Shown: positions 6,544-30,092 of the stretch, one piece after another
Position numbering within the stretch: the stretch's first letter is position 1
Layout: each line of letters begins with the position of its first letter
Source: a virus
Strand: one strand, 5' to 3'
IMG/VR virus record: IMGVR_UViG_3300027742_000009
Location: 1 to 64,000 of that record
Length of the DNA: 64,000 nucleotides
The notes under the pieces: model-generated
Told to the model about the DNA's origin: nothing
Databases searched by the model: none
Seen by the model: only the letters and a program-made list of their open reading frames with translations
Made by a program: the position numbers and the translations under genes

Positions 6544-8557
6544 AATGTCTCATAATTGGGTTACACCAAGTTCGGTTCATAGTTTCTGCGGAGAATCTTT
6601 TGGTCATCTTGCAAGTCATGCAATAGACGATAATACTGCTACTTATTGGAGACATGGTACTGTAGATTTCCATTGGGTTATTTTTGATATGGGCGAAACT
6701 AAGGCGATAACTAAAATTCGTTTATATCAGAATGGAGAGCTTAGTCAACAGAGATGGGGCTGGAGTTTTGGGATGTATGTTTATGTTGGGGACGACCCTG
6801 CAAGTTTTGGTGTGGCTGTCTGGGAAGGAATTTTAAATAGTTCTGGTTGGCAAGAATCTGGAGAATTTAGTAAAAGTGGTCGTTATGTCAAACTTTTAAG
6901 TAAGTTTAGTGGTGATGACCAACGTATGTTTGAGTTCGATGCTTATTGTCTGGCTGGTGGTGATGGAAATGGAGACTATTCTGGTGGACCTTGGGTAGAT
7001 TTAGGAACGATTAGTTCAATCGGAGATATAATAGGTCCATTGAACATTCCATATAGTAGAGTTTCAGATGGTTTACAAACTATTGCTGAAAAAACACTTG
7101 CGGCGTTTACTCCTTGGGAATGGTGGTTTGATTATAGTGGGAACCTTTATTTTAAACAATCAAGAGGAACTGATAAGTCTGCAACTATCCACTTAGTGGC
7201 TGGAGACCAGATAGGCGGTTCAAGAAAAGAACAGATAAGTAAGCAAACAAGCCAGAGAGTTAGAGTTACTGGTCGTGGTGAAAGTGCAGACCAAGACCGA
7301 AATACGAGTGACTGGCAAGAAGAAACAAGTGAAATGGCATCCAATAAAGTTAATGGTTTTTACGAGAAAGTTGAATCGGAGAAGAGTTTGTCTAGTAAAG
7401 AAGAATCTGATGTTTGGGCTCAAGTTCTTCTTGCCCAGAATAGCCCAGTAAGAAATGAAATTACAATTACTTTAGAAAATGATTGGTACACTTCTGGTGA
7501 TGCCCCGCTTAATCCCAATAACTATGACCTTGGAGACTATGTTACTGTTACTGACCCTGCTACTAAATTAACTGGTAAATATCGGGTTAAGACAATAGAA
7601 AAATGGATTGATGGTGATGGTGGAGAAAAGGTTCAAGTTACTGTGTCTAAACGTAGAACGGATATTATGGACCGTCTTTCAAACTTGTTTAAGGTAATGG
7701 AAAGAATGAAAAACTCAAGTACATACTTGGATACTTTATATGCTGAAGGTGGAAAACAAAGGAAAATAGACGCAAATAAAGTTGAGGATATTTGGAGTCA
7801 ACAGGCAAGTAATGAGTGGGCTACAGAATTACCAGAAGATAAAACTGAAGACGATGATTACCTTCAAGAATGTGACCCTTATGGAAGAATAGATTATAGT
7901 TGTACTAAAGACGAATTTGAAGTTTACGCCACAGCTCATACTGCTGTGGGGTGGGTTTATTTATATGGAACAGCCAATAAAGGAGACCCACTACTCAATT
8001 TTAGTAGAGACCCAAAATTCACTTGTGAATTTGAAATAGACACAACTGGTGCAGATAGAACAGAATGGAATACTGGAACTTTTATTTCATTTGGCATTAG
8101 AAGTATATATAACCCTGTTACTCCAACAGATTGTGGTAATTGGGGACTTAGAGGATTTGGCTTTGTAGTTAAACAAACCGCTTCCAATTTAACGTTAGAA
8201 GCTCGTTTATATATTGATGGAAGTTGCATAAAAGAAGTAAAAATAGCCAATATATCTTATGACGTAAGATATATTGTGGAAGCCCGATTAGAATGGAAAG
8301 AAAAAGTGATAAAATATTATTTTGGTAAATCAGATGTGGATAAAAATGACCTGCAGTTTGGTTTTAGATTAAGAGCTATATTGCCAATACCATTAGAAAC
8401 TCAAGACATATATAATTTTGGTGGAAATGACTACAACAATTATTTATGTCCATTCCATGTTGTTTTATGGGGACAAGATGGGGCTATAAACCCTGAAAAG
8501 CCAGCAATAGTAATTTATCGTTGGAAGACTCAAGCTATTAGGGCGGTTGAGGGATAA
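6530..8557 (+). CDS. tail-associated protein with N-terminal F5/8 type C (discoidin/CBM32-like) domain
   Basis: HAIDDNTATYWRHGTVDFHWVIFDMGETKAITKIRLYQ is a typical discoidin signature. The remainder resembles siphovirus tail-tip proteins. Confidence 0.55.
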   Translation: MKVIKMSHNWVTPSSVHSFCGESFGHLASHAIDDNTATYWRHGTVDFHWVIFDMGETKAITKIRLYQNGELSQQRWGWSFGMYVYVGDDPASFGVAVWEGILNSSGWQESGEFSKSGRYVKLLSKFSGDDQRMFEFDAYCLAGGDGNGDYSGGPWVDLGTISSIGDIIGPLNIPYSRVSDGLQTIAEKTLAAFTPWEWWFDYSGNLYFKQSRGTDKSATIHLVAGDQIGGSRKEQISKQTSQRVRVTGRGESADQDRNTSDWQEETSEMASNKVNGFYEKVESEKSLSSKEESDVWAQVLLAQNSPVRNEITITLENDWYTSGDAPLNPNNYDLGDYVTVTDPATKLTGKYRVKTIEKWIDGDGGEKVQVTVSKRRTDIMDRLSNLFKVMERMKNSSTYLDTLYAEGGKQRKIDANKVEDIWSQQASNEWATELPEDKTEDDDYLQECDPYGRIDYSCTKDEFEVYATAHTAVGWVYLYGTANKGDPLLNFSRDPKFTCEFEIDTTGADRTEWNTGTFISFGIRSIYNPVTPTDCGNWGLRGFGFVVKQTASNLTLEARLYIDGSCIKEVKIANISYDVRYIVEARLEWKEKVIKYYFGKSDVDKNDLQFGFRLRAILPIPLETQDIYNFGGNDYNNYLCPFHVVLWGQDGAINPEKPAIVIYRWKTQAIRAVEG

Positions 8558-9451: not shown

Positions 9452-10899
9452 TATTTGTCCACTTCATTTAACTTATATTTATAGTTATTCATGGTGATTT
9501 TTCCTTCAACACTAAGAACATCTAATAATCTACTTAGTTCTCTTGGTGGTATTTTATCGTTTAACAGTTTTTGTATTTGGTCTGAACTTTGAGGGATAAA
9601 TAGTGTTTTCAATATTACTTTTTTGTTTACTTCTTCCTTATCTTCGATACTAAGTGGTTTTCCTAGTTTGGCTTGGTGAATGTCTATTTTCTCTCCTTGT
9701 TCCCTCTCTTCCAAATTCTTACTCAGTCTATAAATCTTTGGTTTACTGCCAGCACTTTCATCCCAATAGATTAAGCCCGCCGCTTCCAAAGTTGGGATTA
9801 TCTCTTCGTTAAGCCTTTTGGTACTTAATGGTCTTTGATATTCCTTCAAATAAAATGTGAATATATCCCGTTTGTTGAATCCATCATTAACATTTTTTTC
9901 TATTACTCTATGATATATCTCATATATTTCTGGGGAAATTCCCATTTCATTAGCCTCACAAATCTTACTATAGAGAATATATGCTACTTCAACATCTATT
10001 TGGTTAGAGTAAATCATATCCCCTTCTCTTTTCCGATTATGAAAATTCAACAAAGCCCAATATTTAATGAGGCGTAGAAGTCTCTGAAAATCTCTCATAT
10101 GACGTGGATTGAGTTTTCTTTCTCTAATGAATGATTCGGCAATTTCTTCACTATTAGAGATAATCACGTCTTTTATAGACGCTTCTTTTATATCCAAAAT
10201 ACGATTTTTCAACCTTAATCTATCAACATTCTCTCTAATTCCAGCCTCAAACTTTCTGCTTTGCCCATTCCTTCTAGCAGTTAAATGAATTGCCTCTTCT
10301 ATTTTTTCAACATATATATCTGGACTTAACTGGAAAAATCTGGTTGATTCTTGAAGGTTTATTTTTTTAGTGGCGGTACACATAATAACTGTTGGAAATC
10401 CAATTATAATAACATTTTTAGCCCTAAAACCAGATTTTTGGCTTTTATCCGTAAATTTCACTTGTAATTCTTTTTCATCATGACTTAACAAACTTCTTAG
10501 TCTAGCCATCAAAGACATTGAAGGCTGGTCTTTAAATATAAAAATCTTCTTTTCCATATCAACCATACGGGCATGTCTATCTTTATCATATGGACCGAAC
10601 TCATGGAAGAAAGCTGTTGGTGAAGCATATCCAATTCTTTTAACGTCTTCTTGGGGGAAATATTGGGCAAGTTCTAATGCTATATAGGTTTTACCAGTTG
10701 AACTTTCAGACCTAAACATTATATTGCTTTGTTCATCACCGAGATATGTTCCAACCATTATTAACAAGGCTATAACTTTATTTTCCCTATCTTGTTTGAT
10801 TGTCGTGCCAAGAATATCTGCTATCTCTTCCAAGTCCATTTCCTTATTTATTGATTTCATTGCTTCCTCTTTAGCATTCAATTCATTTTCCATAGACAT
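9451..10899 (-). CDS. P-loop NTPase, putative replicative helicase/primase-associated ATPase
   Basis: Walker A SESSTGKT and Walker B-like KIFIFKDQP; C-terminal region looks like winged helix; close to the primase gene. Confidence 0.45.
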   Translation of the reverse strand: MSMENELNAKEEAMKSINKEMDLEEIADILGTTIKQDRENKVIALLIMVGTYLGDEQSNIMFRSESSTGKTYIALELAQYFPQEDVKRIGYASPTAFFHEFGPYDKDRHARMVDMEKKIFIFKDQPSMSLMARLRSLLSHDEKELQVKFTDKSQKSGFRAKNVIIIGFPTVIMCTATKKINLQESTRFFQLSPDIYVEKIEEAIHLTARRNGQSRKFEAGIRENVDRLRLKNRILDIKEASIKDVIISNSEEIAESFIRERKLNPRHMRDFQRLLRLIKYWALLNFHNRKREGDMIYSNQIDVEVAYILYSKICEANEMGISPEIYEIYHRVIEKNVNDGFNKRDIFTFYLKEYQRPLSTKRLNEEIIPTLEAAGLIYWDESAGSKPKIYRLSKNLEEREQGEKIDIHQAKLGKPLSIEDKEEVNKKVILKTLFIPQSSDQIQKLLNDKIPPRELSRLLDVLSVEGKITMNNYKYKLNEVDK

Positions 10900-10900
10900 G

Positions 10901-11068
10901 TTATTTATCCCCTACTATGGGGGTATTATTACCCCCCTTATTAAAGATAATATAAGTATATTTATTACGTCCACAATTAGGACAAATCCACCGTTGACTC
11001 AAACCTTTCTTAGTACGCCTTTTACCATTCTTAACCATTTCAGTTTTACACTCTGGACACTTCAACAT
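10901..11068 (-). CDS. small zinc-ribbon protein (55 aa, below ORF-track cutoff)
   Basis: Hand translation MLKCPECKTEMVKNGKRRTKKGLSQRWICPNCGRNKY...; the stop lies 1 nt before the start of 9451-10899. Confidence 0.45.
   Translation of the reverse strand: MLKCPECKTEMVKNGKRRTKKGLSQRWICPNCGRNKYTYIIFNKGGNNTPIVGDK
10919..10936 (-). promoter_or_regulatory. GC-rich hairpin (7-bp stem GGGGGTA/TACCCCC, 4-nt loop) upstream of the helicase start
   Basis: Perfect palindrome read directly. An alternative CCCC(10909-12)/GGGG(10919-22) pairing overlaps it. Confidence 0.4.
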
Positions 11069-11197
11069 ATTTCACTCACTCAATTATATGATAAAGTGAT
11101 ATATAAAAGTTACTATTGAAGAAAACTTCTTCTTTATAAGTTTATTTATTACTAACACTAATTAACGGAAAAGAAAGGGATAAAGATAAAAAGGAAT

Positions 11198-12091
11198 TTA
11201 GTTGGGTTGTTTTGGTTCTGGTGCTTTGGAAGTTCCAACCCTCTTTACTGTGCTATCTTGTGGGGGAAGAAGCAGTTTCTTCTCTTCTTCTTCACGTTTC
11301 TTCTTACGTAGTTCTTCACATTTCTTGCTTGTATAAGCTGGGTCATATATAAACTGGAACAACTGTGCGTCCCAAAACTTGTATATTGTTTCTATTGGAA
11401 TAATAAAGCCCATCCAAGTAATAATATCCACGCTAAAGCCAAGTTGATAACCGCTTATTCTAGCTGTAACACCTATATATTCATGTGTTTCATCCATAAA
11501 GTCACTTCCGCCACTATTACCGAATATAGTGTTAGCAGTTGACAACCAATATTCTTCATTCTCTATAATGTCATGTTTACCCATTAAGATTCCTTTGTTC
11601 AGAATAGGTTCATGTCCCAATGAACAACCACAAGAGCAACTTCCCATTCCAATTTTGATTTCATCAGATTTACCTTTCGGGTAAAGTTTTGCAACATATT
11701 TGAATGGTTTACTTGTCTTCAATTTTAGCAACGCCAAATCATATTGTTGGTCCCAAGCCATAATCTCAGCATTATAAGCAGAAGCCCCAGTAATCGTACT
11801 CATTTCTTCATACTCAAAAATCTCCACTTGCACTAACTCACGAACTTCAGTTTCAATAGTTCTATCAGCAAAAGGATGTTTCTTCTTCACTTTCTTAATA
11901 GCACTTTCAACAACGTGATGGCACGTCATAACATAAGTTTCATATTTCCCATTGTTATCTGGAATTGGCTTACTATAAACAATCAATCCAGAACCACCCG
12001 CCTTAGCCGTTCTCACCCGCACCGTAGGATAAATCATATCTTCATGTTCACTTTTTATCCGTTTAAGAGTTTCTTCACTAAATCTGCTCAT
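11198..12091 (-). CDS. trypsin-like (S1/DegP-type) serine protease
   Basis: Catalytic triad contexts TCHHV, DLALLKL and GNSGGS; unusual SCSCGCS insert; basic/acidic C-terminal tail. Confidence 0.7.
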   Translation of the reverse strand: MSRFSEETLKRIKSEHEDMIYPTVRVRTAKAGGSGLIVYSKPIPDNNGKYETYVMTCHHVVESAIKKVKKKHPFADRTIETEVRELVQVEIFEYEEMSTITGASAYNAEIMAWDQQYDLALLKLKTSKPFKYVAKLYPKGKSDEIKIGMGSCSCGCSLGHEPILNKGILMGKHDIIENEEYWLSTANTIFGNSGGSDFMDETHEYIGVTARISGYQLGFSVDIITWMGFIIPIETIYKFWDAQLFQFIYDPAYTSKKCEELRKKKREEEEKKLLLPPQDSTVKRVGTSKAPEPKQPN

Positions 12092-12183
12092 TTAATCACT
12101 ATCATATTCTATATTGAATTCTCCCTAATAAAAGTTGTGGTTTTTTTTCTAAACATTTAAATATCACTTCCCCTATTAACTAT

Positions 12184-13338
12184 TTGATAATATTGTTTGA
12201 GAAAATAAAATTTCACGCTAATCTAACGCTTGGCAATTTTTGGCTAAGTTGGTTTGGGAACTTTGGTAGGGAACTAGGTTCTAATGTTCCACATTCATTC
12301 GGAACAAATCCATATGGCGATGAATTGTCACATAGAATGTTTACTGATAAACCATCGGAATATATGAATTTTATTGATTGGTGCATTAAACGTGGAAAAG
12401 CATGTTGGATTACTTCCCAGCCAATGCGTGAATATGGTGTGCCATTGGGAATAGAAAAATTGTTTTTTGATTTTGATTATCCATTAAAAAAGAATTGGAA
12501 TATGACTCCACGAAGAAGAGAAAAAGTTAAAGAACAAGTTTTGGAGTTTCTTAAACCATTAGATTATGAACCATTATTAGTAGCTACCCGCAAAGGCTTT
12601 CACGCTTATATTTTCTTACGAAGAGTTTACGAGTTTGAACCACAAAACTTTGATTTCGCCAAAGATGTTTTTGGCGTATTAGCATTATCCATGATTGGCT
12701 TACCAAAATTATATGAACAGTTAGAAGAGGAAGACCGTAAAAAGTGGAAGTATCTTGATTTTGTTCCGTTAGGTGATATTAATCGTATGGCTAGAGTACC
12801 TTTAACTCCACACGAAAAAACTGGTGAAGTCTGCCAGATATTAGACCGTAAGTTGAAACCAACTAAAGTTAGAAGTTTAGATTTGTACCGTACATATGGT
12901 CTTCGTGAAGATAAAATTCGTGAAGCAGTAGAAATAGTTAAGGATTACTACCAAAAGAAAGTGAATAGAGAAAAAAGAAGAATTGAATCTGGAAGTAAAG
13001 ACTTTGCGAATGGCGGCGGAAAATTTCATGGGCAAATAAGACCGTGTTTTCTGGAAAGAATGAGAATTGGAGAAATGGTTCATCAACAACGACTTGCCTT
13101 TCTCATTGAAATATACTGGAGTAAAATAAAAAATCAAAGACAATGGAGTAGAATGAGAAAAGAAGAAACAATGATAAACTTTTTCCGTCAATTCAAAGAT
13201 TTCAAAGAGAAAGAAACTAGATACTACGTTAATTATTTTCTAAACCATAACCCAAATAAATTTCCACCATACCGTTGCAAAACACTAGAAAGATTAGGTT
13301 ACTGCTTAAAGAGTGAATGTCCATTTTACAAACAATAA
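12184..13338 (+). CDS. archaeo-eukaryotic primase (PriS-like) with C-terminal Cys-cluster domain
   Basis: AEP motifs FFDFDY (DxD), RKGFHAYIF (sGxH) and RVPLTPHEKTG. C-terminal cysteines at PCF, YRC, GYC and SEC. Start uncertain: TTG 12184, first in-frame ATG 12337. Confidence 0.6.
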   Translation: MIILFEKIKFHANLTLGNFWLSWFGNFGRELGSNVPHSFGTNPYGDELSHRMFTDKPSEYMNFIDWCIKRGKACWITSQPMREYGVPLGIEKLFFDFDYPLKKNWNMTPRRREKVKEQVLEFLKPLDYEPLLVATRKGFHAYIFLRRVYEFEPQNFDFAKDVFGVLALSMIGLPKLYEQLEEEDRKKWKYLDFVPLGDINRMARVPLTPHEKTGEVCQILDRKLKPTKVRSLDLYRTYGLREDKIREAVEIVKDYYQKKVNREKRRIESGSKDFANGGGKFHGQIRPCFLERMRIGEMVHQQRLAFLIEIYWSKIKNQRQWSRMRKEETMINFFRQFKDFKEKETRYYVNYFLNHNPNKFPPYRCKTLERLGYCLKSECPFYKQ

Positions 13339-15205: not shown

Positions 15206-15322
15206 TTGGAAAAGACTTGCAAATTCTGTGGCAAGAAATTCAAAACTTACAATAGCAAACGCAAGTTTTGTAGTCGTAAATGTTTCTATGCATGGTTAAA
15301 GAAGGTAGCTGAAAATGATTAA
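15206..15322 (+). CDS. small Cys4 zinc-binding peptide (38 aa)
   Basis: TTG start 6 nt after AGGTGA. Reads LEKTCKFCGKKFKTYNSKRKFCSRKCFYAW...; overlaps ATG 15315. Confidence 0.3.
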   Translation: MEKTCKFCGKKFKTYNSKRKFCSRKCFYAWLKKVAEND

Positions 15323-16382
15323 ACCAGCAAACAATAATTTGAGAGGAATGTTCCTAGATGCAGATGATGTACGAGTTATAACTATTGATTTGCCACTAAT
15401 AACTAAACGTCTTGTCGGTAAGAAACGTGTTTATGGAGAATTGGCTTTAATTGGTGATTTCCATTATGGGCACGAAGAATTTTCTCATAGTGTATTAAAT
15501 GGTTATCTTAATTATTTCAAAGCACATCCTTACATACAATTCGGATTAATGGGAGATTACGTAAACTATGCTGAAACTTCATGGCACGTCAGAGATGAAA
15601 CAATGACGATAGATAAACAGATAGAACAGTTTTGTGGTGATTGGAGACCATTCAAAAACCGCATTAAGTTTATGCTTTCTGGAAATCACGATGAACGATT
15701 TATTAGAGTAACAAAATCATATCGTTTTCTACGTAACTTAGCATTGGAAATGGGGATAAACCCAGATAAATGTTCTATTGGTGAACCGCAAAGAGGATTC
15801 TTTCTAGTTGTAAAAGCTGGAGAGAAATTGTATGGTGGATATGTTCATCACGGTTCTACCAACGCTAGAATAAACCGTAAACTTCAACTGAAACGTATGG
15901 GTTCTAATAATCAAGTATGTTTCATAGCACATGGACACACTCACGAATTGAGTTGGGGAGAAAAACGCACATTCCGTAGTTTAGAAATTATAAATGGAGA
16001 AGTAAAAAATGTTGTTCGAAGACAATTCTTAATTTCAACTGGATGTTTCCTAAAATATCCAAGTTATGCAGAAGCAAAAAGTTATCCATACACGGATGTT
16101 GGATGTCCAATACTTAGGTTTTATGCTGACGAATCAGAAATGGAAATATATGATTTAACATCTCACTATAAACAATTTCTATCTAAAGGTGGAATATCTT
16201 TTCAAGGAATAAAAAAACCCTTATCAACAGAACTAAAGAAAATACTTCCTAAAAAAACAAAATGTCCAAATTGTGGAAGTATAGCCTCTCAAAAAAGAGG
16301 AATTGAAGTTAACAAAACTGGTAAACGTCAACGTTATCAATGTTTGAAATGTGGGAAATGGTTTAGCGTTCAAATGGAGTGA
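15315..16382 (+). CDS. calcineurin-like metallophosphoesterase (Mre11/SbcD-like or NinI-like) with C-terminal zinc ribbon
   Basis: Motifs GDFHYGH, GDYVNY, GNHDE, HHGS and GHTHE in canonical order. C-terminus CPNCGS...YQCLKCGKWF. Confidence 0.7.
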   Translation: MIKPANNNLRGMFLDADDVRVITIDLPLITKRLVGKKRVYGELALIGDFHYGHEEFSHSVLNGYLNYFKAHPYIQFGLMGDYVNYAETSWHVRDETMTIDKQIEQFCGDWRPFKNRIKFMLSGNHDERFIRVTKSYRFLRNLALEMGINPDKCSIGEPQRGFFLVVKAGEKLYGGYVHHGSTNARINRKLQLKRMGSNNQVCFIAHGHTHELSWGEKRTFRSLEIINGEVKNVVRRQFLISTGCFLKYPSYAEAKSYPYTDVGCPILRFYADESEMEIYDLTSHYKQFLSKGGISFQGIKKPLSTELKKILPKKTKCPNCGSIASQKRGIEVNKTGKRQRYQCLKCGKWFSVQME

Positions 16383-16561
16383 ATCATGTGACTGAGGGAA
16401 AATGTGACAGTTGCGGGGCAATTGTTGATACCTTAGTTCCAATCCGCATTTTATGTGAAACTAACGGTGCTATGGAAATGCAACTTAGACACTACTGCCC
16501 AGAATGTTTTATGGAGATGATGGATAATTGGGAACGTGATAAGAAAGATGAAGAAAAATAA
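16379..16561 (+). CDS. small zinc-finger protein
   Basis: CDSCGA...HYCPECF; 4-nt overlap with the upstream gene and 26-nt overlap with the Lon gene. Confidence 0.4.
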   Translation: MNHVTEGKCDSCGAIVDTLVPIRILCETNGAMEMQLRHYCPECFMEMMDNWERDKKDEEK

Positions 16562-18683
16562 ATTCTTTGGGAAGAACGAAAAGAAATGGAAATGGGAGAA
16601 TTTCAAGTCAACTAAAGGATTTCCTATTCCAGACGAACTTTTAGCATGGGTTATTGGACAAGACAAGGCTTTAGAAGAATGTAGATTGTGTATTGATGAG
16701 TGGGTTCAAAAACTACTTCATCTTAAAAAGAAACAATGGTGGAAAGCTTTTGAAGACCCAGAAAAGGATAAACCGCCACCAAAAGAATGGCTTCCTAGTG
16801 GTCCTTTCTTGTTAATGATTGGTGACGCTGGAACTGGAAAAAGCCTTATAGGAAGAGCATTATCAACTTACATGACTGACTTATACAAAAGGAAAGGAAT
16901 TGAACTTAACGATGTTTTAAGTTGGAAAAACAAAGCAATGCCTTCCACCCCCAAAATAAGCATTCATCCTTCTGGTGTTGGCAAAAAAATAGTTCAGAAA
17001 CTTAGATTAAAATCTTTGAAGAAAAGTCGTTTTTCGAAATGGGGATTTAGGCTTTTGGAAGGTTTAATGATTGGGTTTGGGTCATTTGTATTAGGAGTTA
17101 CATTTTATAGTATTGGGTCAAGTTGGTTTGGCATAAATGCACAGGGTTATCCTATGCAACTTATTTATGAAGGAAATTTCATACAATATCTTATTGATTC
17201 GTTAATGGCTAATGTTATGATGATTTATTTGGGTATTGGCATATTATCTATGGGAGCAATGATATTTATTTTCAAGCATATTCTCGGTGGTCTTGGCGGA
17301 AGCAAAAAGGGTATTGGTGGAGCCGAGTCAGTAGATTCACCTAAATTGATAGTTGACAATTCAAGTGGAAATGCACCATTTATAGATGCGACTGGACATG
17401 GAAGTTCCCAATTATTTGGGTCAATTGCTTGGGACCCATACCAGACGGGTGGACTTGGAACTCCAGAACATCAACGTGTTAGTGCTGGAGACGTTCATCG
17501 GGCTCATCTTGGTGTTTTATATATAGACGAAATTAAGAATTTGAAGGGGGCAGAAGCAACAACACTTCTTACAGTCTTAGAGGACGGTCAACTTTCAATA
17601 GCACTAAGAAGTCAAATGCATGGTGGAGATACTGCCGCAATGGCTGTTTCAACTGAACCAGTTCCAGCAATGAACTTTTTTATAGCGGCTGGAAACCTTG
17701 ATAGTGTTCCACAAATACACTATGCTTTAATGGATAGGATTTATGGTTATGGAAAAGTTGTTTATATGAATAATGACATGGATAATTCAATAAAAAACAG
17801 AAGAAGATATATTCAGTTTATAAGTCAAGAAATTAAACGTTTTAATTTGCTTCCTTTCAATCGTGAAGCTTGTATAGAAGTAATTAATGAATCAAGTAGA
17901 AAAAGTGATATGACAAGTAAACTTTCAACCAAGTTTAGACCAATGATAAGCATAATAAAAACAGCTAGTATTCTTGCTCATAACGAAGGAAAAAAGATAG
18001 TTGAGGAGAAACATGTTAAAGAAGCTATAAAAGAACATTGTAAAACTATTCAGTTGCAAGTTTTAGAACAAATAACCGAAAAACGTGAAATATATAATAT
18101 TATTAATCCAGAAAGTAAGCCGATAAAAGGACAAATATATGGTATGGCAGTTTCTCATTTTGAGGGACAGAAAGGAGTAGGCATTATACTTCCAATCAAA
18201 GCTTCAGTTGAAAAACTAAGTAAAAATTCTAATGGGTATTTCCGTGTTACTGGCGTAAAAACTAAAGATGATTCATGGGTTCAAAATTCAATTAGTAAAG
18301 TAACAACTGTAATTCAGCAACGTTACAAACACAAAAAGAAACTTGGAATTCATATTGATTTTGCACAGTCAATAGGAATTGATGGTCCAAGTGCTGGTGT
18401 AGCAATGGCTTTATCTTTAATATCACTATTTGAAAAGAAAGCAATAAGACAAGATACTACTGTAACTGGAGAAATAAACATTAGTGTAGAAGACAAAATA
18501 TTAGTTACTCCGATTGGTGGAGTTAGAGAAAAAATATTAGGTGCAGAACAGTCTGGATTTAAACGAGTCTTAATTCCTAAACGAAACTATGAAGTTAACA
18601 TTAACCCGTCAGACTATAAAATAAAAGTTATTCCTTGCTTAACTCTTAAAGATTATGAAAAGGAGATTCTGGTGAAAAAGTGA
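16536..18683 (+). CDS. lonB: archaeal-type membrane-anchored Lon protease (LonB)
   Basis: Walker A GDAGTGKS; two TM helices (LMIGFGSFVLGVTFYSIG, MMIYLGIGILSMGAMIFIF) inserted before Walker B VLYIDEI; protease Ser in GIDGPSAGVAMAL and Lys in GGVREKILGA. Confidence 0.85.
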   Translation: MIRKMKKNKFFGKNEKKWKWENFKSTKGFPIPDELLAWVIGQDKALEECRLCIDEWVQKLLHLKKKQWWKAFEDPEKDKPPPKEWLPSGPFLLMIGDAGTGKSLIGRALSTYMTDLYKRKGIELNDVLSWKNKAMPSTPKISIHPSGVGKKIVQKLRLKSLKKSRFSKWGFRLLEGLMIGFGSFVLGVTFYSIGSSWFGINAQGYPMQLIYEGNFIQYLIDSLMANVMMIYLGIGILSMGAMIFIFKHILGGLGGSKKGIGGAESVDSPKLIVDNSSGNAPFIDATGHGSSQLFGSIAWDPYQTGGLGTPEHQRVSAGDVHRAHLGVLYIDEIKNLKGAEATTLLTVLEDGQLSIALRSQMHGGDTAAMAVSTEPVPAMNFFIAAGNLDSVPQIHYALMDRIYGYGKVVYMNNDMDNSIKNRRRYIQFISQEIKRFNLLPFNREACIEVINESSRKSDMTSKLSTKFRPMISIIKTASILAHNEGKKIVEEKHVKEAIKEHCKTIQLQVLEQITEKREIYNIINPESKPIKGQIYGMAVSHFEGQKGVGIILPIKASVEKLSKNSNGYFRVTGVKTKDDSWVQNSISKVTTVIQQRYKHKKKLGIHIDFAQSIGIDGPSAGVAMALSLISLFEKKAIRQDTTVTGEINISVEDKILVTPIGGVREKILGAEQSGFKRVLIPKRNYEVNINPSDYKIKVIPCLTLKDYEKEILVKK

Positions 18684-19354
18684 AAATCTATTACGACAAA
18701 GTAAAGACTAAGGAAGTCAACGATAGGATATGGGAAGTTTGGGGTAGCAGAAAAAAGAAGTGGGCTGAACATGGATATAATGTTAGTGAATGTAGTGGTT
18801 GTGAACTTAAATGTTATTGCAACAGAACTGGAATGGAACAGAAAATAACTAGAAAATCCATAGGATTCTTAGTCTTCGGCATTATTGCAGAATCAATTGT
18901 TATGGAGATTTATCCAGAAGAACAAAGACAATATGAAGCTAACTTAAACGAGATTGTTTGGGGACATATGGATGCTTATGAAGACCTTACTTATGTAATT
19001 GAAGGGAAAGCAACTGCCAAAAGAATATTCAAGGCAAAAGATTTACCAGTTGTTTGGGTAATGCAGATAATCAATTATATTACAATGAGCAATTCAAATA
19101 AGGGATGGTTGTATATATTAGATATTTTCACTCGTCAGTTCTCGGCTTTCTGTGTTGAATTAACAAGTTCTGAGAAACTACAGCAAATTGAAGAGTTAAT
19201 GGATAAAGTTTCACGTTTTGACAAAGCAATTCAAATTAAAGACCCGTCAAATCTACGGATTAACCCAGAACAATATACACTTTGTAATTACAAGAAAGAT
19301 TGTCCTAGAAGACAAGAATGTAAAGCGAAATATAAAGAGTTGAAGAAGAAATGA
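18680..19354 (+). CDS. Cas4-like PD-(D/E)XK nuclease with Cys cluster
   Basis: N-terminal cysteines (ECSGCELKCYC), GHMDAY...YVIEGK (D...ExK), MQIINY (QxxxY), and C-terminal CNYKKDCPRRQEC. Confidence 0.6.
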   Translation: MKIYYDKVKTKEVNDRIWEVWGSRKKKWAEHGYNVSECSGCELKCYCNRTGMEQKITRKSIGFLVFGIIAESIVMEIYPEEQRQYEANLNEIVWGHMDAYEDLTYVIEGKATAKRIFKAKDLPVVWVMQIINYITMSNSNKGWLYILDIFTRQFSAFCVELTSSEKLQQIEELMDKVSRFDKAIQIKDPSNLRINPEQYTLCNYKKDCPRRQECKAKYKELKKK

Positions 19355-19938
19355 GCTTCTGGAAAACGATTATTATACTTTTTCTTATAGGTATTTTAAT
19401 GGCTGTAATGTTCTATCATATGACCAAACCTAGTTATCCATTAATTGTCAATTTGTATAAATATAGATATAAACAAATGTCTGATTCAAACGCTAAAAAA
19501 CAATTAATAGATTATACAAAGTCTATAAACGACTCTATTGAAGGACTTAACTATTCAGAACTGTTAGCTTGGGAACATAGACATCTTATTTATACAAAAA
19601 GTCATTTGAATTCTCCACGACCAGAACTTCCAATCCCAATAATAGAACGAGGTAAAGGAAGATGCGGAGAATTTGCTTTATTATATACTGGTCTTTGTCT
19701 TGCCAATAATATTCCAGTTCGTCTGGTTATAGATTGTTCAGTCAAAACTGACAATCGTTCTACTGCTGACCATGTGTGGAATGAAGTATATGTAGATGGA
19801 AATTGGTTGCATGTTGACCCAACAGAAAATAAAGTTAATCAACCACATCTTTACCGAGATGGATGGCACAAGAATGTTAATTTGGTTTATGCTATTTTTT
19901 ATGAGGAAATAATTAACGTAACTGAAAAGTATAATTAG
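19351..19938 (+). CDS. membrane-anchored transglutaminase-like (Cys-His-Asp) enzyme, PNGase/cysteine-protease superfamily
   Basis: N-terminal TM IIILFLIGILMAVMF; GKGRCGEFALLYTGLCLANNIPVRLV (Cys), DHVWNEVYV (His), WLHVDPTE (Asp). Confidence 0.65.
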   Translation: MSFWKTIIILFLIGILMAVMFYHMTKPSYPLIVNLYKYRYKQMSDSNAKKQLIDYTKSINDSIEGLNYSELLAWEHRHLIYTKSHLNSPRPELPIPIIERGKGRCGEFALLYTGLCLANNIPVRLVIDCSVKTDNRSTADHVWNEVYVDGNWLHVDPTENKVNQPHLYRDGWHKNVNLVYAIFYEEIINVTEKYN

Positions 19939-20696: not shown

Positions 20697-22370
20697 TTAC
20701 CATTTTATACCATATAACTCATCAATACTTAACTCTTTCTTTTTCTTGTCTTTAGGCAATTTTTTAAGAAACTCATCCAATATGTTTCCGCCTTCTTCAA
20801 CTCTATAATCAACCATTCCATATTGACAACTATCCAGAGAATGGTCATCAATCTTACGAATTTTTCCTTTTCTCCAACAAGCCTTACGTAATGACTGAGT
20901 TAAATACCAAAACTTTTTTGGAATAACAATCTTATGTTTCTCCACGAAGTTTATGATATTATAAATTCTCGCAAGCTTTTCCGATTCTGGAATAATATAA
21001 ACTGAATATCCCTTGTCTTCCATTTTCTCGTTCAAGTGTTTACCCGCTACTGCTGGGTCTGGAATGAAAGTCCATGTCTTCCATTTCTGCATACTATCAT
21101 GTATCCAACTAATCTTTTCTTCTTCCCTCAACCCTAACTGTTCATCATTAAACAATACAAAAACAGTATCTTCTTTACGACCAAAAACAGTTAATGCACA
21201 AGGAGCTTCTGATACTCCATAATCAAATCCAGCACGTCTTTCCAGAATATATTTTGTTGGGTCTTCTGGAGTTCCCAACTTTAACAATTTAACTAATGGA
21301 CATTTATTTGTGTATGGTTCACATTCGTCACAAAGGTCACAAATAACAACGTCTAAATCATCCTTTTTAAACACGGCTCCACTAGCCATACTTGCTCCGC
21401 CTAAAGCCATTGACAACCATTCCTCATCACCTTTTGTTTTACGTTTCTTACTTATTTCTTCTTGTGTCATCCACCAAACATTAGGAAGCCAATGTAACGG
21501 GTCTTTATCCAAATAAGTTTCTATAGGTTTCTTCCCACTAATATGTTTTGCAATTGCCCATTGATAAGTAGTAAAACCATACTTCTTAGGGTTCTTCATA
21601 TATTCATAGAACATTCCAAAAATATAATCAGCCGTTGAAGTAAGAATAAGTCGCCCAACTCTTTTCCCAGTTAACTGCCACATAACAGATTTAACTGCTT
21701 TAGCTCCATCCTCACTCTTGTCTTCTGCGGCACATGCCTCGTCTATATCAACTTCGTTAACGTGTGGTCCCTTACTAGACAACATGCTACAAGCGGGAAA
21801 TCTACATTTACTTCTTCCCAAAGTATAACAAGCCTTTTTAATTCCATGAAGACTTTTATAAATAATTTTTCCAAGCATCGGAATATCCATTCTCCAATCA
21901 TCAATATATTCTTGAATAAGTTCACTCTGTTGACTACTTCCACCCATACAAGTAATTGAATAACGGTCTTGAGTTGAAATCTGCCAACAATTCCATATAC
22001 CTAAACAAAATGTTTTTCCCGCACCACGACCAGCCGCTAAAAGAATCAGTTTGGATTTTTCTTTCCACAGTTCATACAAAAATGTTTTTTGGTCTGAAGA
22101 CAAAACAATATGGTACGGTGTACCATTCACTCTAAACTTTGGATGTTTCTTTTGGCATCCTTCACACCATACTTCTGGGTTATTATCTGGCTTAAAATCT
22201 GGATGTGACGGAACATCTTGTGGACACGTTAATACTTCCTCTGCAAATCGTATTGGTCCAGCTTCACGCCAATATTTCTGCCAAGATTCAACTTCAAGTT
22301 CTTTATGTTTCTTATCTTTTTCACTCTTCAAGAGTTTACCAATAGACTCAAACGTTCTTGAAGAAGGCAT
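20697..22370 (-). CDS. terL: terminase large subunit
   Basis: Walker A LLAAGRGAGKTF, Walker B VDIDEA, C-terminal RNaseH-like nuclease segment GFDYGVSEAPCALTVFG; 557 aa. Confidence 0.85.
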   Translation of the reverse strand: MPSSRTFESIGKLLKSEKDKKHKELEVESWQKYWREAGPIRFAEEVLTCPQDVPSHPDFKPDNNPEVWCEGCQKKHPKFRVNGTPYHIVLSSDQKTFLYELWKEKSKLILLAAGRGAGKTFCLGIWNCWQISTQDRYSITCMGGSSQQSELIQEYIDDWRMDIPMLGKIIYKSLHGIKKACYTLGRSKCRFPACSMLSSKGPHVNEVDIDEACAAEDKSEDGAKAVKSVMWQLTGKRVGRLILTSTADYIFGMFYEYMKNPKKYGFTTYQWAIAKHISGKKPIETYLDKDPLHWLPNVWWMTQEEISKKRKTKGDEEWLSMALGGASMASGAVFKKDDLDVVICDLCDECEPYTNKCPLVKLLKLGTPEDPTKYILERRAGFDYGVSEAPCALTVFGRKEDTVFVLFNDEQLGLREEEKISWIHDSMQKWKTWTFIPDPAVAGKHLNEKMEDKGYSVYIIPESEKLARIYNIINFVEKHKIVIPKKFWYLTQSLRKACWRKGKIRKIDDHSLDSCQYGMVDYRVEEGGNILDEFLKKLPKDKKKKELSIDELYGIKW

Positions 22371-24149: not shown

Positions 24150-25157
24150 ATGGGAATTACATTTGAAGAGACTGTATATGGCTTTCAAACAAGCGACCTT
24201 CTTGAAGCGGCTACTACTGACACTAAAGACAGACTTTCTGGTGGATGTGCTTATGCGGCTTGCGACTTAATTCCAGTATTACTCTGGAAAGAAGTCAATC
24301 TTGGAGCTACTTGGAAATTCGTTTTCCGTAATGCTGTTGAAGAAACTGACATGTTGATAGGTGTGGACGGAAATAGTATTTGTGTTCCATATCTTGACCG
24401 TGACGAGTTTACTGCTTTGACAGCTTCAGAAGACACAATAAAAACAGATGGTTATACTAAAGCAAAACTTGCTCCGAAGTCTGCATGTCTATCAATTGGC
24501 GATGTGGTTTATGTAGCAACTTACATAACAGACATCTTGCGTGAAGATTCTCCAAGCCTTCAATGGGTGAGGGTTAACCTTCAGAAGATGGGTCAAGCAG
24601 TAGCTAAAAAGATAGATGAAGACATCCGAGATTGTTTGCGAAGTGCTTGCACCGTTGTTAACGGAAACGTTAACGCCGCAACAACTGCTGGAACATTAGA
24701 TTATGATGACGTTGTAGATGCAGTTGCACACTTGAAAGGACTAGGTTACTGGGGTAAAGATGATGGTCCAATGTTACTATTCATTAACGTTGACCAAGAA
24801 GCAGATTTGGTAAAGGACACACGATTTACAGATACAGCAAGATACACAACTGCGGATATTCCATTGGGAGCTGGTGTGGGTGGATTTAACATGCCAGAAC
24901 GTGGAAGATTTGCAAGTTGCCGTGTATTCGTAACTGATTTGGCAATGACAGATGCTAGCGGAAGTACAGCTTACGCATTAGTAGTTGCACCGCCAACCAA
25001 TCCATATGGTCCAGCGGCAATGCTAGCGTGGAAGCGTCACATAAGACAGAGAACAGAACGAAGAGAGCAATATGAGAAAGACATGTTTGCTATAAGCACT
25101 AGATATGGTGTAATGGTTAAATTTGCCGATGCCATAAAGCTCATCTCAGACTGCTAG
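24150..25157 (+). CDS. major capsid protein candidate (HK97 fold)
   Basis: 335 aa, own promoter and a T7 terminator, followed by connector-like genes. Composition and length are typical; no sharp motif, so the call is positional and compositional. Confidence 0.55.
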   Translation: MGITFEETVYGFQTSDLLEAATTDTKDRLSGGCAYAACDLIPVLLWKEVNLGATWKFVFRNAVEETDMLIGVDGNSICVPYLDRDEFTALTASEDTIKTDGYTKAKLAPKSACLSIGDVVYVATYITDILREDSPSLQWVRVNLQKMGQAVAKKIDEDIRDCLRSACTVVNGNVNAATTAGTLDYDDVVDAVAHLKGLGYWGKDDGPMLLFINVDQEADLVKDTRFTDTARYTTADIPLGAGVGGFNMPERGRFASCRVFVTDLAMTDASGSTAYALVVAPPTNPYGPAAMLAWKRHIRQRTERREQYEKDMFAISTRYGVMVKFADAIKLISDC

Positions 25158-26531: not shown

Positions 26532-27800
26532 TTGAAACGCTTTATAATGGCGATAGGCGACTCGCCTTTTGCTGGGACTGGTTTCGGTGAAGAGTTAAGA
26601 CATGTTCTTTTTAGGTTAGCACAGAATGAACAGTTTGATGTTAGTTGGCAAAGCCTTCAACATCTTGGTTATCCAATTGACGTTCCAGACACCATGTTTT
26701 CTGACATTCCAAATAGACATGGTAAAGTAAAAATTTATGGTAGTCATGGAGACCCACTTAGTTTCGGAGCTAATGCTTTCCTAAAGAATTACCGTGATAT
26801 TAATCCAGAAATGGTCTTGTTTATGGGAGACCCAAGAAACATTAAATCTTACATAGACTATAAAGTTCGGTTAGGCTTTCCTTTTATTCATTATGTAACG
26901 TTGGATGGAACTCCAATTCATCCTCAATGGAAAGACTATCTTAAATATGTTAATTTACTTATTGCAATGACGGAGTGGGCACAAAAAGAATATCAGAAAG
27001 TAGGATTAAATCCAGCAATGATTCATCATGGAGTTAACTGTAAATGGTGGAAAGTTAAGCCAGAAGAAAAATATTCTTTGAGGCGTGAACATACAGTTTC
27101 AGATGATGCTGTAATATTTGTTAATTGGGATATTCCTCAACATCGAAAAAGAACCGATGCTTTACTTCGTTGTTGGAAACAATTTCTTAGAGGAAATAAA
27201 GACCGTCAAAAAAGAGCTATTTTACTTCTTTATACTGATTGGAATCTTGGCGGAAGTATGGGATGGAATCTTGAAGGTTTAATAAGTCAATATAAAATTC
27301 CACGACAGAATATTATTAGTCCAATTCAAATTCAAGGAGCACCGAAATACTGGAGTAGTGCTGAAACTCCAGAACAACTTAAAAAAATAGTTAGTATGGC
27401 TGACATTATGGTTTCAACTACTTCGGGTGAAGGTTTTGGAAAGACGGGTTTGGAAGCTATGGCTATGAATATTCCAGTTGTAATTACGGATTATGCGGCT
27501 AGTAGTGAAGTTCACAAGAAAGGAAGTATTCTAGTTCCAACTTATAGGGGAAGAGCTGGAAGATATAGGATGGATGACCGTAGAAGAAGCGTGGAAGCTG
27601 GAATAGTGGACGAGAAAAAGTTTGTTGATGCTATGATTTACCTTTATGAAAACGATAGGGAGAGACGTAAGTTGGGTATGGAAGCTAGACGATGGAGTAA
27701 GGAATTTGATTACGACAAGAAGATAGTTCCGCAATGGGTGAAGCTTCTAGGGGGATTGGATACTGACTTGATAGCCGCTAAGGAATTATTGAATATTTAA
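26532..27800 (+). CDS. glycosyltransferase, GT-B fold (GT4-like)
   Basis: E-x7-E region STTSGEGFGKTGLEAMAMNIPVVITD. Likely start ATG 26547. Confidence 0.75.
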   Translation: MKRFIMAIGDSPFAGTGFGEELRHVLFRLAQNEQFDVSWQSLQHLGYPIDVPDTMFSDIPNRHGKVKIYGSHGDPLSFGANAFLKNYRDINPEMVLFMGDPRNIKSYIDYKVRLGFPFIHYVTLDGTPIHPQWKDYLKYVNLLIAMTEWAQKEYQKVGLNPAMIHHGVNCKWWKVKPEEKYSLRREHTVSDDAVIFVNWDIPQHRKRTDALLRCWKQFLRGNKDRQKRAILLLYTDWNLGGSMGWNLEGLISQYKIPRQNIISPIQIQGAPKYWSSAETPEQLKKIVSMADIMVSTTSGEGFGKTGLEAMAMNIPVVITDYAASSEVHKKGSILVPTYRGRAGRYRMDDRRRSVEAGIVDEKKFVDAMIYLYENDRERRKLGMEARRWSKEFDYDKKIVPQWVKLLGGLDTDLIAAKELLNI

Positions 27801-27808
27801 TAGAAAAG

Positions 27809-27816
27809 TTTAAATA
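27809..27816 (+). promoter_or_regulatory. TATA-like box (TTTAAATA)
   Basis: AAAAGTTTAAATATT, then GAGGTGA (27834-27840) and ATG 27846. Confidence 0.35.
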
Positions 27817-27836
27817 TTGAGAGTGATATATTAGAG

Positions 27837-28097
27837 GTGATGAAGATGAGTGAAGTGAAATATCCAGTAAGCGACTTTCTCAAAGTAGTTGAAGCAGTAG
27901 ATATTTACAAGACGGAGAAATGGTGGAAAGCAGTTCTATTAACAGAAAGCAAGTATGGAATGCAAATAGGAGTTTACTTATGGACTATAGATAAGAAGAC
28001 TGGAGATTGGAAGCGTAAGCAGAAGATGGGTATTAGAAGTTTGGATGAATTGAACAAAATTGTTGAAGCAGTAAAACAATATCTAGGGAGAATATAA
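27837..28097 (+). CDS. hypothetical protein
   Basis: 86-aa ORF. Probable start is ATG 27846, 5 nt after GAGGTGA. Confidence 0.4.
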   Translation: MMKMSEVKYPVSDFLKVVEAVDIYKTEKWWKAVLLTESKYGMQIGVYLWTIDKKTGDWKRKQKMGIRSLDELNKIVEAVKQYLGRI

Positions 28098-28217
28098 ATG
28101 AAATGTCCTAAATGTGGTCATTGGGATTGGGTTTCTTATACACATAGCAAAACCATAAAGTGTTTAAGATGTGGTTATGTGGGAACTATTGAGGAATTTG
28201 CTGATAGGAGTGATTAA
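28098..28217 (+). CDS. small zinc-ribbon protein (39 aa)
   Basis: Hand translation MKCPKCGHWDWVSYTHSKTIKCLRCGYVGTIEEF... Confidence 0.4.
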   Translation: MKCPKCGHWDWVSYTHSKTIKCLRCGYVGTIEEFADRSD

Positions 28218-28497
28218 TAAATTGCCTTATGTAACGGATAAATGGAAATATAAATATCAACGTTGTCTAGTTCATCTTGCTAGTCGCCTTATTGAAGATA
28301 CTATGGGTGGAAAAGAAAATACTGGTGTAGTTGTTTATGTTGTTTATTTGCTTCTGAAACGGATTTATGGAGAAGGAAACTTTGAAGTTCGAAGTAACGC
28401 TTTGAAAGTTTTGGAGTCTGCTAAACTAGAATATTATCGTAGGGTTATAGCACCATACGAAGATAAAAAGATAAGAATTAATGGAGATGTAAAGTAA
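28171..28497 (+). CDS. hypothetical protein
   Basis: 108-aa ORF; the start is uncertain because it overlaps the zinc-ribbon ORF. Confidence 0.4.
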   Translation: MVMWELLRNLLIGVINKLPYVTDKWKYKYQRCLVHLASRLIEDTMGGKENTGVVVYVVYLLLKRIYGEGNFEVRSNALKVLESAKLEYYRRVIAPYEDKKIRINGDVK

Positions 28498-28820
28498 TGG
28501 GTATTATCTGGTTTAATGTTCCCGAAGCCTACAAGTATCTTATGGAACACGGTGAAGTATATACTTTACGTGACCATCTTAAAAAGGAAGGTAAGGCAAT
28601 GTTGAAGTCTTCGTTGGAAGGCAAACCTTACTATAAGGGAATGGTAATCATCAAACTTATCTCCGCAAAACCATCTTATCCGTCTTTGACTTATTACAAA
28701 AGTTTTAGCGGTTGGATAGAATATCATGTTGGAAAGTCTGGATTTAAAACGGTTGAGGAATGGCTTTCTAAAGTTGATAAAGAAGGAGAATTATTTTTGT
28801 TTCATGTGAGGAAAATGTAA
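28497..28820 (+). CDS. hypothetical protein
   Basis: 107-aa ORF with ATG overlapping the upstream stop. Confidence 0.4.
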   Translation: MGIIWFNVPEAYKYLMEHGEVYTLRDHLKKEGKAMLKSSLEGKPYYKGMVIIKLISAKPSYPSLTYYKSFSGWIEYHVGKSGFKTVEEWLSKVDKEGELFLFHVRKM

Positions 28821-29770
28821 TGCCAAGAAAAGAAAAAACTCCAGAAGAAAAGTTTCGTGAAATGGTTAAAACCAGCGAAGGCTGGGAAGACTTTGAAAAG
28901 ACACTTAAAGAAGTAAACGTTAAATGTGAACTTCAACCATTAGCGGAAGATAAAGAAAGACAAATACTTTTGAATACTGGAACTGTCTTTGACGATTTGC
29001 TTGGTGGTGGATTATCTGCTGGACAAACTGTAGAATTATTTGGTGAATATGCTTCGGGTAAAACTCAAACTTGTTTTGCTTTTATTGTTGAAGCGGCTAG
29101 TGAAGGACTTGTTATAATAGTGGATTCGGAAGACACGTTTAGTCGTAAAAGAATACTTCAGATTGCAGAGGTAAGAGGAAAAGATATAGAAACTATCAGT
29201 AATAATATTATGCTTTACAAGCCAGAAAGGTGGGAACAACAAGTGTCTATTCCAGCTAATCTTCCAGACCCATTACCAGCTAAACTTAGGCTTGTTGTTA
29301 TTGATTCGTTAATGGCTTTGTTCCGTTCAACACCAGAGTTCGCTGGAAGAAGTAATCTTGGTAAACGTCAAGAACTTATTCGTTGGCACTTGCGTCAATT
29401 CAAGAAAATAGCCAAAAAAGAAGGGGCAATAATAGTTTATACTAACCAAGTTTATGATGAACCAGTTGCTAATCCTTTCTTGCCTAAATGGGCTTGTCAA
29501 CGTCCCGTAGGTGGACACTCAGTTGCTCATATAGGTGATTACCGAATATTCTTGCGTAAAGCAAGGGGAAATGTTAGAATAGCAAAGTTGATTGATAATA
29601 GTGAAATTCCACCAGCAGAACGAGTATTCCAAATTAACGAAAAGGGCATTGATGACTTGTCGCCAGAACAACGTGAAGAAGCAATGAAGAAAGAGAAACA
29701 GTTTGCGACTAGACAGACGGCTGGAGAATTTGTGAAGAAACGAAAAAAGAAAGAGGAAGACAATGAGTAG
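28820..29770 (+). CDS. radA: RadA/Rad51-family recombinase
   Basis: Walker A GEYASGKTQ, Walker B LRLVVIDSLMALFR, and the NQV motif typical of RadA cores. Confidence 0.8.
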   Translation: MPRKEKTPEEKFREMVKTSEGWEDFEKTLKEVNVKCELQPLAEDKERQILLNTGTVFDDLLGGGLSAGQTVELFGEYASGKTQTCFAFIVEAASEGLVIIVDSEDTFSRKRILQIAEVRGKDIETISNNIMLYKPERWEQQVSIPANLPDPLPAKLRLVVIDSLMALFRSTPEFAGRSNLGKRQELIRWHLRQFKKIAKKEGAIIVYTNQVYDEPVANPFLPKWACQRPVGGHSVAHIGDYRIFLRKARGNVRIAKLIDNSEIPPAERVFQINEKGIDDLSPEQREEAMKKEKQFATRQTAGEFVKKRKKKEEDNE

Positions 29771-30092
29771 GTATATTCTGTCGAAGAAAATGAAGAAAAT
29801 TCTTGAAGCAAGAGGACATAATCTAGTTTGTAAGATTTGTGAATGTCCCATACTTGTTGGTGACTTAGTAGAAAGTAAACAACAACGTAAAGGTAAATGT
29901 AAGTTTTATCATGCTAAATGTTATGATGATTCAATGTTTGATATTCCGAATGGAGACGATGATGACGATGATTTCTTTGCTTGTCCACATTGGAAACCAG
30001 ATTATAAAATAACAATAACAATTGACAAAGGTAAAATTTTCGATTTTGGAATAATATATCGCATTAAAAGATTATTTGGGCGGGACAAATAG
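29763..30092 (+). CDS. hypothetical Cys-containing protein with poly-Asp stretch
   Basis: CKICECP...CKFYHAKC and GDDDDDDF. Confidence 0.4.
   Translation: MSRYILSKKMKKILEARGHNLVCKICECPILVGDLVESKQQRKGKCKFYHAKCYDDSMFDIPNGDDDDDDFFACPHWKPDYKITITIDKGKIFDFGIIYRIKRLFGRDK

Follow-up and report, generated by a model that had tools for sequence, protein, structure and literature searches.

The DNA analysed here, which we call the window, comprises positions 1 to 64,000 (64,000 nucleotides) of the IMG/VR virus record IMGVR_UViG_3300027742_000009 and carries on its plus strand, at 16536-18683, a complete gene for the archaeal protease LonB in which all catalytic and nucleotide-binding residues are intact. 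In archaea, LonB serves as the main energy-dependent protease of the membrane, and cells normally encode it in a single-copy housekeeping gene. The evidence set out below indicates a viral gene that is old and under selection, not a recent pickup, a flank of host DNA or a relic. The reading that we favor, with a probability of roughly 60%, is that the gene encodes a LonB predicted to be functional, derived from Bathyarchaeia and long resident in a lineage of head-tailed archaeal viruses, its likeliest role being that of a virus-controlled supplement to, or replacement for, the LonB of the host. What is described is a known kind of enzyme in an unusual genomic home.

The open reading frame (ORF) has 715 codons counted from a GTG at 16536, and the residue numbers used throughout follow that count; the probable start is an ATG at 16548, which gives a product of 711 amino acids (aa), has a Shine-Dalgarno-like GTGAT just 5' of it and is the start used in public gene calls of the identical protein P0001 (711 aa). 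A preliminary description of this DNA, made from its letters alone, had proposed the hallmark LonB architecture, and motif searches, Pfam and comparison with a known LonB structure confirmed every element of it. The Walker A motif GDAGTGKS (aa 96-103; 16821-16844), with its invariant Lys102, and the Walker B motif VLYIDEI (aa 327-333; 17514-17534), with invariant Asp331 and Glu332, enclose the first and second hydrophobic helices of the membrane-anchoring insert (aa 173-195 at 17052-17120, and aa 222-254 at 17199-17297). Sensor-1 Asn387 (17694-17696), the Arg finger Arg401 (17736-17738) and sensor-2 Arg468 (17937-17939) were also located, and together with the Walker motifs, all of them invariant in alignments, they place the protein among the AAA+ ATPases. 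Pfam recognized the AAA+ lid domain specific to LonB (PF20436; aa 440-501; 17853-18038; E 2.7e-13, 50.2 bits against a cutoff of 22.4) and the S16 Lon proteolytic domain (Lon_C, PF05362; aa 520-688; 18093-18599; E 2.6e-21). The two contexts of the Ser-Lys dyad that had been picked out by eye are likewise present, catalytic Ser619 (18390-18392) in DGPSAGVAM (aa 616-624) and catalytic Lys666 (18531-18533) in GGVREKILGA (aa 661-670), and in an alignment of 226 sequences both residues fall in the columns of the canonical LonB Ser and Lys and are invariant in virus-side and cellular copies alike.

LonB enzymes are defined by an insert of about 100 aa, located between the two Walker motifs, whose transmembrane helices anchor the protein in the membrane (PMC9569914). 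The two hydrophobic segments of the viral protein occupy that position, and an AlphaFold2 model (mean pLDDT 75) has long helices at aa 148-197 and 215-253, so that membrane insertion is predicted. Ahead of Walker A there are only about 90 aa, for which Pfam returned neither LON_substr_bdg nor any other match to the N-domain of LonA-type enzymes. The LonB of Thermococcus onnurineus (3k1j) was both the top PDB match by sequence (E 2.6e-86) and the top fold match of the AlphaFold2 model (Foldseek E 2e-40; TM-score 0.71 normalised to the target), and the profile and structure matches to LonB are far beyond chance. In the alignment with 3k1j, the columns of Ser619 and Lys666 carry Ala in the 3k1j chain, presumably as engineered active-site mutations.

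In two respects the viral protein departs from the B type. Its score against the NCBIfam LonB model TIGR00764 (364.9 bits; E 7.8e-109) lies under the equivalog cutoff of 516.6 bits, and the region of its catalytic serine (aa 614-621; 18375-18395) holds a LonA-type DGPSAG within the LonB architecture, where the classical B-type catalytic motif is (E/D)GDSA(S/T). Cellular LonBs of Bathyarchaeia also score below the cutoff (394-417 bits) and have DGPSAG in common with the viral enzyme; as both departures are shared, they are a trait of the whole clade of Bathyarchaeia and viruses and not of the viral copy, and since the architectural features of LonB are all in place, we assign the protein to a divergent DGPSAG-type subgroup of LonB. 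Among 12 more distant sequences of LonB architecture, DGPSAG was found in four, (E/Q)GDSAS in seven and an altered active site in one. The occurrence of DGPSAG within this architecture suggests a distinct subgroup of archaeal Lon proteases with B architecture and an A-like active site.

The score below the TIGR00764 cutoff, and the long branches on which the viral sequences lie, could also be taken to indicate a decaying passenger or a pseudo-enzyme, no longer a protease and kept as an ATPase or not at all. Such a reading is very improbable. The cellular enzymes score equally low on the same model, the reading frame of the viral gene is full-length and intact, and none of the 94 virus-side sequences departs from the Walker A Lys, the Walker B Asp-Glu pair, Asn387, Arg401, Arg468, Ser619 or Lys666; this invariance also disposes of the loss of catalytic residues that the preliminary description had named as one way in which its claim could fail. 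At pore-loop position 302, 83 of the 94 sequences have Tyr or Phe and the rest Leu or Ile. The check for relaxed or positive selection that had been proposed gave a ratio of non-synonymous to synonymous substitution rates (dN/dS) of 0.105 against a relative of 84% identity (dS ~1.06), and of 0.16-0.20 against more distant relatives, for which dS is saturated. The viral LonB is under purifying selection, and the pseudogene was rejected as a candidate on the invariant motifs, the low dN/dS and the intact frame.

The gene lies in viral surroundings, as had been claimed from the structural genes seen on both sides of it. On one side, 2 kb from LonB, is the gene of the large terminase TerL (20697-22370, minus strand; phrog_2, 7.7e-15), with that of an HK97-like major capsid protein beyond it (24150-25157, plus strand; weak profile matches to phrog_267, 3.7e-07, and to PF25209); on the other side are tail genes, among them that of a tail protein at 6530-8557 (plus strand) with an F5/8 type C domain and matches to Sipho_Gp37, a minor tail protein and phrog_538. 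The presence of a terminase, an HK97-fold capsid protein and tail proteins on one contig is the hallmark of Caudoviricetes. The identical protein and gene order were found in two further independent assemblies (ENA and Logan), three in all, which excludes an assembly chimera, and the arrangement is conserved in related contigs. The base composition is uniform along the window, the guanine-plus-cytosine (GC) content being 34.3% for the LonB gene and 34.7% for the window as a whole, in contrast to 40-51.5% for cellular Bathyarchaeia LonB genes; as the viral gene equals its surroundings in this respect and lies below its cellular counterparts, its transfer must have been old.

These observations bear directly on whether the gene is the housekeeping copy of a cell, present here as the flank of a provirus, in a mis-binned cellular contig or in an assembly chimera. 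LonB is otherwise a cellular gene, its closest named homologues are in metagenome-assembled genomes of Bathyarchaeia, and misclassified cellular contigs are possible in IMG/VR; nevertheless, this explanation is barely credible. The gene lies between the tail genes and those of TerL and the capsid protein, in an order kept in the three assemblies and five related contigs, its GC content matches the virus and is 6-17 points under that of the cellular LonB genes, it falls outside the cellular clade in the tree described below, the window has no tRNA genes, and neither ribosomal nor other housekeeping genes were found among the window ORFs screened. Moreover, in a cellular comparison set consisting of the best 80 of 351 genome hits among 185,579 species-representative genomes, a terminase was found within 6 kb of LonB at none of the 80 loci, and the only homologue of any other window gene near them was one weak match (3e-05). 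Host flank and chimera were therefore rejected on synteny, composition and independent assemblies, and the scenario of host chromosome flanking a provirus, which had been named at the outset as a possible refutation, fails on synteny and composition.

Related viral contigs, which had been suggested as the place to look for further copies, proved to carry LonB as well. Five other contigs (L004, L011, L111, L112 and L113) share a module with the window, in which a 482-aa ORF, the trypsin-like protease, an ORF of about 370 aa and the metallophosphoesterase (L004, L112, L113) are followed by LonB, a 230-aa ORF, the transglutaminase-like gene (L011, L111), TerL, three small ORFs and the capsid gene. 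Identities to the window proteins across the five are 54-68% for LonB and 62-78% for TerL; for the capsid protein, compared in L004 and L011, they are 59-75%. A close-relative search of IMG/VR with the single LonB protein returned nothing, and an alignment-based search found 24 loci with a LonB relative there. With the TerL profile, the flanks retrieved around LonB were found to hold a terminase at 18 more loci, or 19 counting the window; at seven of these 18 the TerL is only 25-30% identical to that of the window, yet a clear terminase (phrog_2, 1e-22 to 1e-38), and lies about 1.3-3.5 kb from LonB. A search of IMG/VR with TerL recovered only two contigs that were already known, both with LonB, and adds little on prevalence. 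In a second arrangement (L001, L002, L114 and L115), LonB follows the gene of the helicase MCM and that of a giant putative surface protein and precedes sugar-modification genes; the assemblies of these contigs reach 63-152 kb and have several other genes in common with the window, and no hallmark gene was found within 10 kb of their LonB. In this uncultivated lineage of head-tailed archaeal viruses, LonB is thus both conserved and common. The preliminary remark that LonB is unfamiliar as a standard viral gene therefore holds for the phage records of GenBank, from which it is absent, and not for this lineage.

The phylogeny that had been proposed to find the donor lineage was built by neighbour joining from 226 sequences and 704 columns with 100 bootstraps, leaving out the close LonB relatives of 990-1120 aa in which inteins are suspected. 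All 80 of the best genome matches are from Bathyarchaeia, 79 of them so named and the remaining one a single-cell genome labelled Thermoproteota that groups with them; their LonBs, located on contigs of up to 1.9 Mb, are 52-57% identical to the viral protein, in comparison with about 35% for the LonBs of other archaea. The LonBs of Bathyarchaeia and those linked to viruses form a joint clade with a bootstrap of 100 against other archaeal LonBs. Within it, all the cellular Bathyarchaeia sequences are collected in one short-branched clade (bootstrap 67) with two subclades (100 each), and every virus-linked LonB lies outside that clade, on long branches. Virus-side proteins are found on contigs of at most about 156 kb, and cell-side ones on contigs of up to 326 kb that carry Bathyarchaeia names. 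Taken together, the phylogeny points to Bathyarchaeia as the source of the viral LonB, and the virus probably infects members of this group. Support for the branching order at the base is poor, and long-branch attraction could have influenced it.

In the rooted tree, the Bathyarchaeia clade is nested in a grade of virus-linked LonBs, which makes a transfer from virus to host possible. Carried further, this would mean that the viral LonBs are the older and more diverse pool, that Bathyarchaeia acquired their DGPSAG-type LonB from viruses, and that the viral enzyme is a specialised protease for takeover or counter-defence exchanged as a cassette, a proposal that we consider doubtful.

As a side observation, most of the close LonB relatives of 990-1120 aa (P0003, P0047, P0054, P0056, P0062, P0070, P0078 and P0091) carry LAGLIDADG or intein-splicing Pfam domains, which suggests that inteins have been inserted in them.

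The window also encodes a RadA/Rad51-like recombinase (28820-29770) of a virus-specific family. Its metagenomic relatives at 60-88% identity are numerous, the nearest named cellular RadA is only about 35% identical, and the gene is not a recent capture from a host.

The divergence among the viral enzymes is considerable, with pairwise identities of about 55% compared to 80-90% among the cellular Bathyarchaeia LonBs. The N-terminal region, the membrane insert and the protease region diverge most, the insert being the least conserved part and the AAA+ core the best conserved. In one contig, L011 (LonB at 9746-12199), TerL (69-71% identity) and the capsid protein (75%) are nearer to those of the window than are those of L004, whereas its LonB is only 52-54% identical to that of the window and clusters with the enzymes of other virus lineages; this discordance, which has weak support, hints at an exchange of LonB alleles among viruses. 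A dedicated protease for host takeover or counter-defence, which would selectively degrade defence, regulatory, surface or antitoxin-like proteins of the host, could account for such a pattern. Divergence that is strongest in these three regions, with the AAA+ core retained, fits an adaptation in substrate recognition or an arms race, the separation of the L011 enzyme from those of its closest virus relatives suggests that alleles are exchanged, and Lon-family proteases act in several defence contexts. On the other hand, LonB has no linked gene for a substrate, an adaptor or a defence function, only three sites consistently distinguish viral from cellular copies, and faster evolution is usual in viral genes and needs no special function. 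We regard such a dedicated role as a possibility worth keeping in view, though not a likely one.

A role in virion morphogenesis or egress, in which LonB, acting at the membrane, would cleave capsid, tail or giant surface proteins, or would control when lysis occurs, together with the trypsin-like and transglutaminase-like proteases encoded nearby, is suggested by position. LonB is about 1.3-3.5 kb from TerL in at least 13 viral contigs, the TerLs of which are only 25-30% identical, and lies in the half of the genome devoted to structure and packaging, two more protease-like genes are conserved in its vicinity, and no canonical prohead protease was identified in the window with Pfam and PHROG profiles. 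The preliminary description had called the ORF at 184-843 prohead-protease-like, and this did not stand, as it has no Pfam, PHROG or PDB sequence match; a portal was not identified in the window either. Against this role, a membrane-anchored hexameric unfoldase is ill-suited to the interior of a procapsid, the known capsid maturation proteases belong to other families, the second set of contigs has LonB beside MCM and sugar-modification genes, and failure to detect a prohead protease by profiles is weak evidence in so divergent a virus. We consider morphogenesis or egress unlikely, and rank the possible roles of the enzyme as (a) supplement or replacement of host LonB, (b) host-takeover or counter-defence protease and (c) morphogenesis or egress.

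In the role ranked first, LonB would be transcribed with its four overlapping neighbours (15315-19938), anchored in the host membrane through the two-helix insert and assembled into a hexamer like that of T. onnurineus LonB, in which ATP hydrolysis and the axial pore loops would unfold proteins and feed them to the chamber containing Ser619 and Lys666. During infection it would supplement or replace the LonB of the host in quality control and in the regulated turnover of membrane and cytosolic proteins, and as a result the membrane, surface and virion proteins of the virus could be made more steadily, or host proteins that hinder the infection could be removed.

Several points weigh against this reading of a Bathyarchaeia-derived supplement or replacement. 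The split between cellular and viral LonBs has a neighbour-joining bootstrap of only 67, and LonB is the single gene on which the host assignment is based; RadA gave no host signal, its nearest named cellular relatives (Woesearchaeota) being 34-37% identical. To the TIGR00764 score below the cutoff are added the low confidence of the AlphaFold2 model at aa 251-323 and 356-370, which include pore-loop regions, and the DGPSAG in place of the classical archaeal EGDSAS, on account of which the biochemistry may differ from that of the LonBs studied so far. The substrates, timing and localisation of the viral enzyme are ones that we infer, and, as the phages studied in this regard inhibit the Lon of their host (T4 PinA, T7 Gp4.5), the benefit of an additional LonB is not obvious.

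With regard to novelty, no published description of a viral LonB, or of LonB in archaeal viruses, was found in the literature searched, and the literature on viral auxiliary metabolic genes yielded no relevant paper on a Lon protease. Neither Lon nor S16 peptidase nor PF05362 appears in those portions of the text and supplementary tables searched of a report on 56 Bathyarchaeia viruses (Duan et al. 2024, PMC10848311), and Lon is not mentioned in two broad surveys of archaeal viruses from 2026. IMG/VR and other metagenome databases already contain the sequences, which carry there either no annotation or the label 'Lon-like protease'. The GenBank phage collection holds no record with LonB and no relatives of the TerL or capsid protein of the window. 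What emerges is a full-length, selected LonB fixed in a broad virus lineage, with about 90 distinct virus-side sequences and 19 loci with a terminase nearby, which adds regulated proteolysis to the host functions carried by archaeal viruses and offers a prediction of the host (Bathyarchaeia) for large sediment viruses without phage relatives in GenBank. The set also constitutes a natural series of highly diverged LonB variants, with activity predicted, for the study of substrate recognition. No new mechanism or protein family is revealed.

LonB is the third of five genes in a plus-strand string (15315-19938) in which each of the four junctions has overlapping start and stop codons, suggesting co-transcription and translational coupling. 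The string opens with a calcineurin-like metallophosphoesterase bearing a C-terminal zinc ribbon (15315-16382), whose stop overlaps the next start by 4 nucleotides, and continues with a 60-aa zinc-ribbon ORF (16379-16561) that overlaps the start of LonB and is conserved in L011 and L018. After LonB come a 224-aa Cys-rich ORF (18680-19354), overlapping the LonB stop by 4 nucleotides and conserved in the close virus family only, and a transglutaminase-like gene with a cysteine protease fold (19351-19938), the last of the string. In the 224-aa ORF, a pair of N-terminal Cys residues, a GHMD...IEGK motif and a C-x5-C-x5-C at the C-terminus are reminiscent of a Cas4-like PD-(D/E)XK nuclease, an assignment suggested by motifs alone; the ORF has no match in Pfam, none in PDB by phmmer or profile, and its single-sequence structure model (pLDDT 37) was unusable. 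The Trypsin_2-like serine protease mentioned above is encoded on the minus strand at 11198-12091 and recurs in related viral contigs, among them the ones with the MCM-LonB arrangement.

Other genes of the window include, in addition to RadA, a DNA methylase and a glycosylation set that is large for a virus, with about nine glycosyltransferase genes (GT1/GT4-like, Glyco_trans_1_2) at 26532-45107 and 56860-57624, to which an NAD-dependent epimerase/dehydratase (44166-45107) and an Anp1-like gene belong; similar sugar-modification clusters adjoin LonB in L001, L114 and L115. A 1177-aa ORF (46516-50049) has a LAGLIDADG homing-endonuclease domain at aa 371-419 and probably contains an intein. An 823-aa homologue of this ORF is encoded a few genes upstream of MCM in L001, and a PDB sequence search found nothing for the 1177-aa protein or for the conserved 482-aa ORF. 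The TerL ORF adjoining LonB is 774 aa long in L006 (~5275-7597), with an equivalent in L022, compared to about 500-600 aa at other loci; it matches part of the intein-containing ORF of the window and is possibly an intein-containing terminase. On the minus strand, the window also carries an 883-aa ORF and a DUF2341 protein (52707-56415). Just upstream of the MCM-LonB pair in L002 (1-7916) and L114 (1023-7886) are giant proteins of 2287-2754 aa, with DUF2341 or with Laminin_G_3 plus Pentaxin, which may be surface or adhesion proteins.

Among characterised enzymes, the closest counterpart is the LonB of T. onnurineus (MEROPS S16, TIGR00764; PDB 3K1J/4ZPX), whose order of domains is identical to that of the viral protein: a short N-terminus, an AAA+ module with the insert between Walker A and Walker B, the lid and the S16 Ser-Lys protease. 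The two are 28% identical in the Foldseek alignment and differ in that the viral LonB has about 35 additional conserved aa before Walker A, a longer membrane insert and DGPSAG rather than EGDSAS, and is encoded by a virus. The nearest cellular relatives, the LonBs of Bathyarchaeia (e.g. CP070820, Candidatus Bathyarchaeum, and JAVYWL010000002; 52-57% identity), resemble it in architecture, in DGPSAG and in the sub-threshold TIGR00764 score; they form their own short-branched clade with no viral genes nearby, whereas the viral copies adjoin terminase genes.

Lon-like genes have been named in viruses before. A 2014 review listed 'Lon protease' ATPases in fuselloviruses, rudiviruses and lipothrixviruses, predicted from AAA+ similarity only (PMC4124505). 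Judged by the names of the ORFs (e.g. SSV1 B251, SIRV2 ORF436), these proteins are about 230-440 aa long, too short for a full-length Lon. We know of no S16 protease domain or membrane insert in any of them. Lon-family protease domains also occur in phage-labelled sequences, namely phrog_15585 and the 'protease La' of contigs of Acinetobacter phage MD-2021a; these are bacterial A-type enzymes without the LonB architecture. In the longer alignments their identity to the viral LonB does not exceed 26% (25.8% across 61% of the protein in the best case), and contaminated assemblies may account for some of the records. The best-known dealings of phages with Lon are those of T4 PinA and T7 Gp4.5, inhibitors of the host protease, which illustrate that Lon activity matters to the outcome of an infection. 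Those phages block the Lon of their host, whereas this virus follows the opposite strategy and adds a Lon-family protease of its own.

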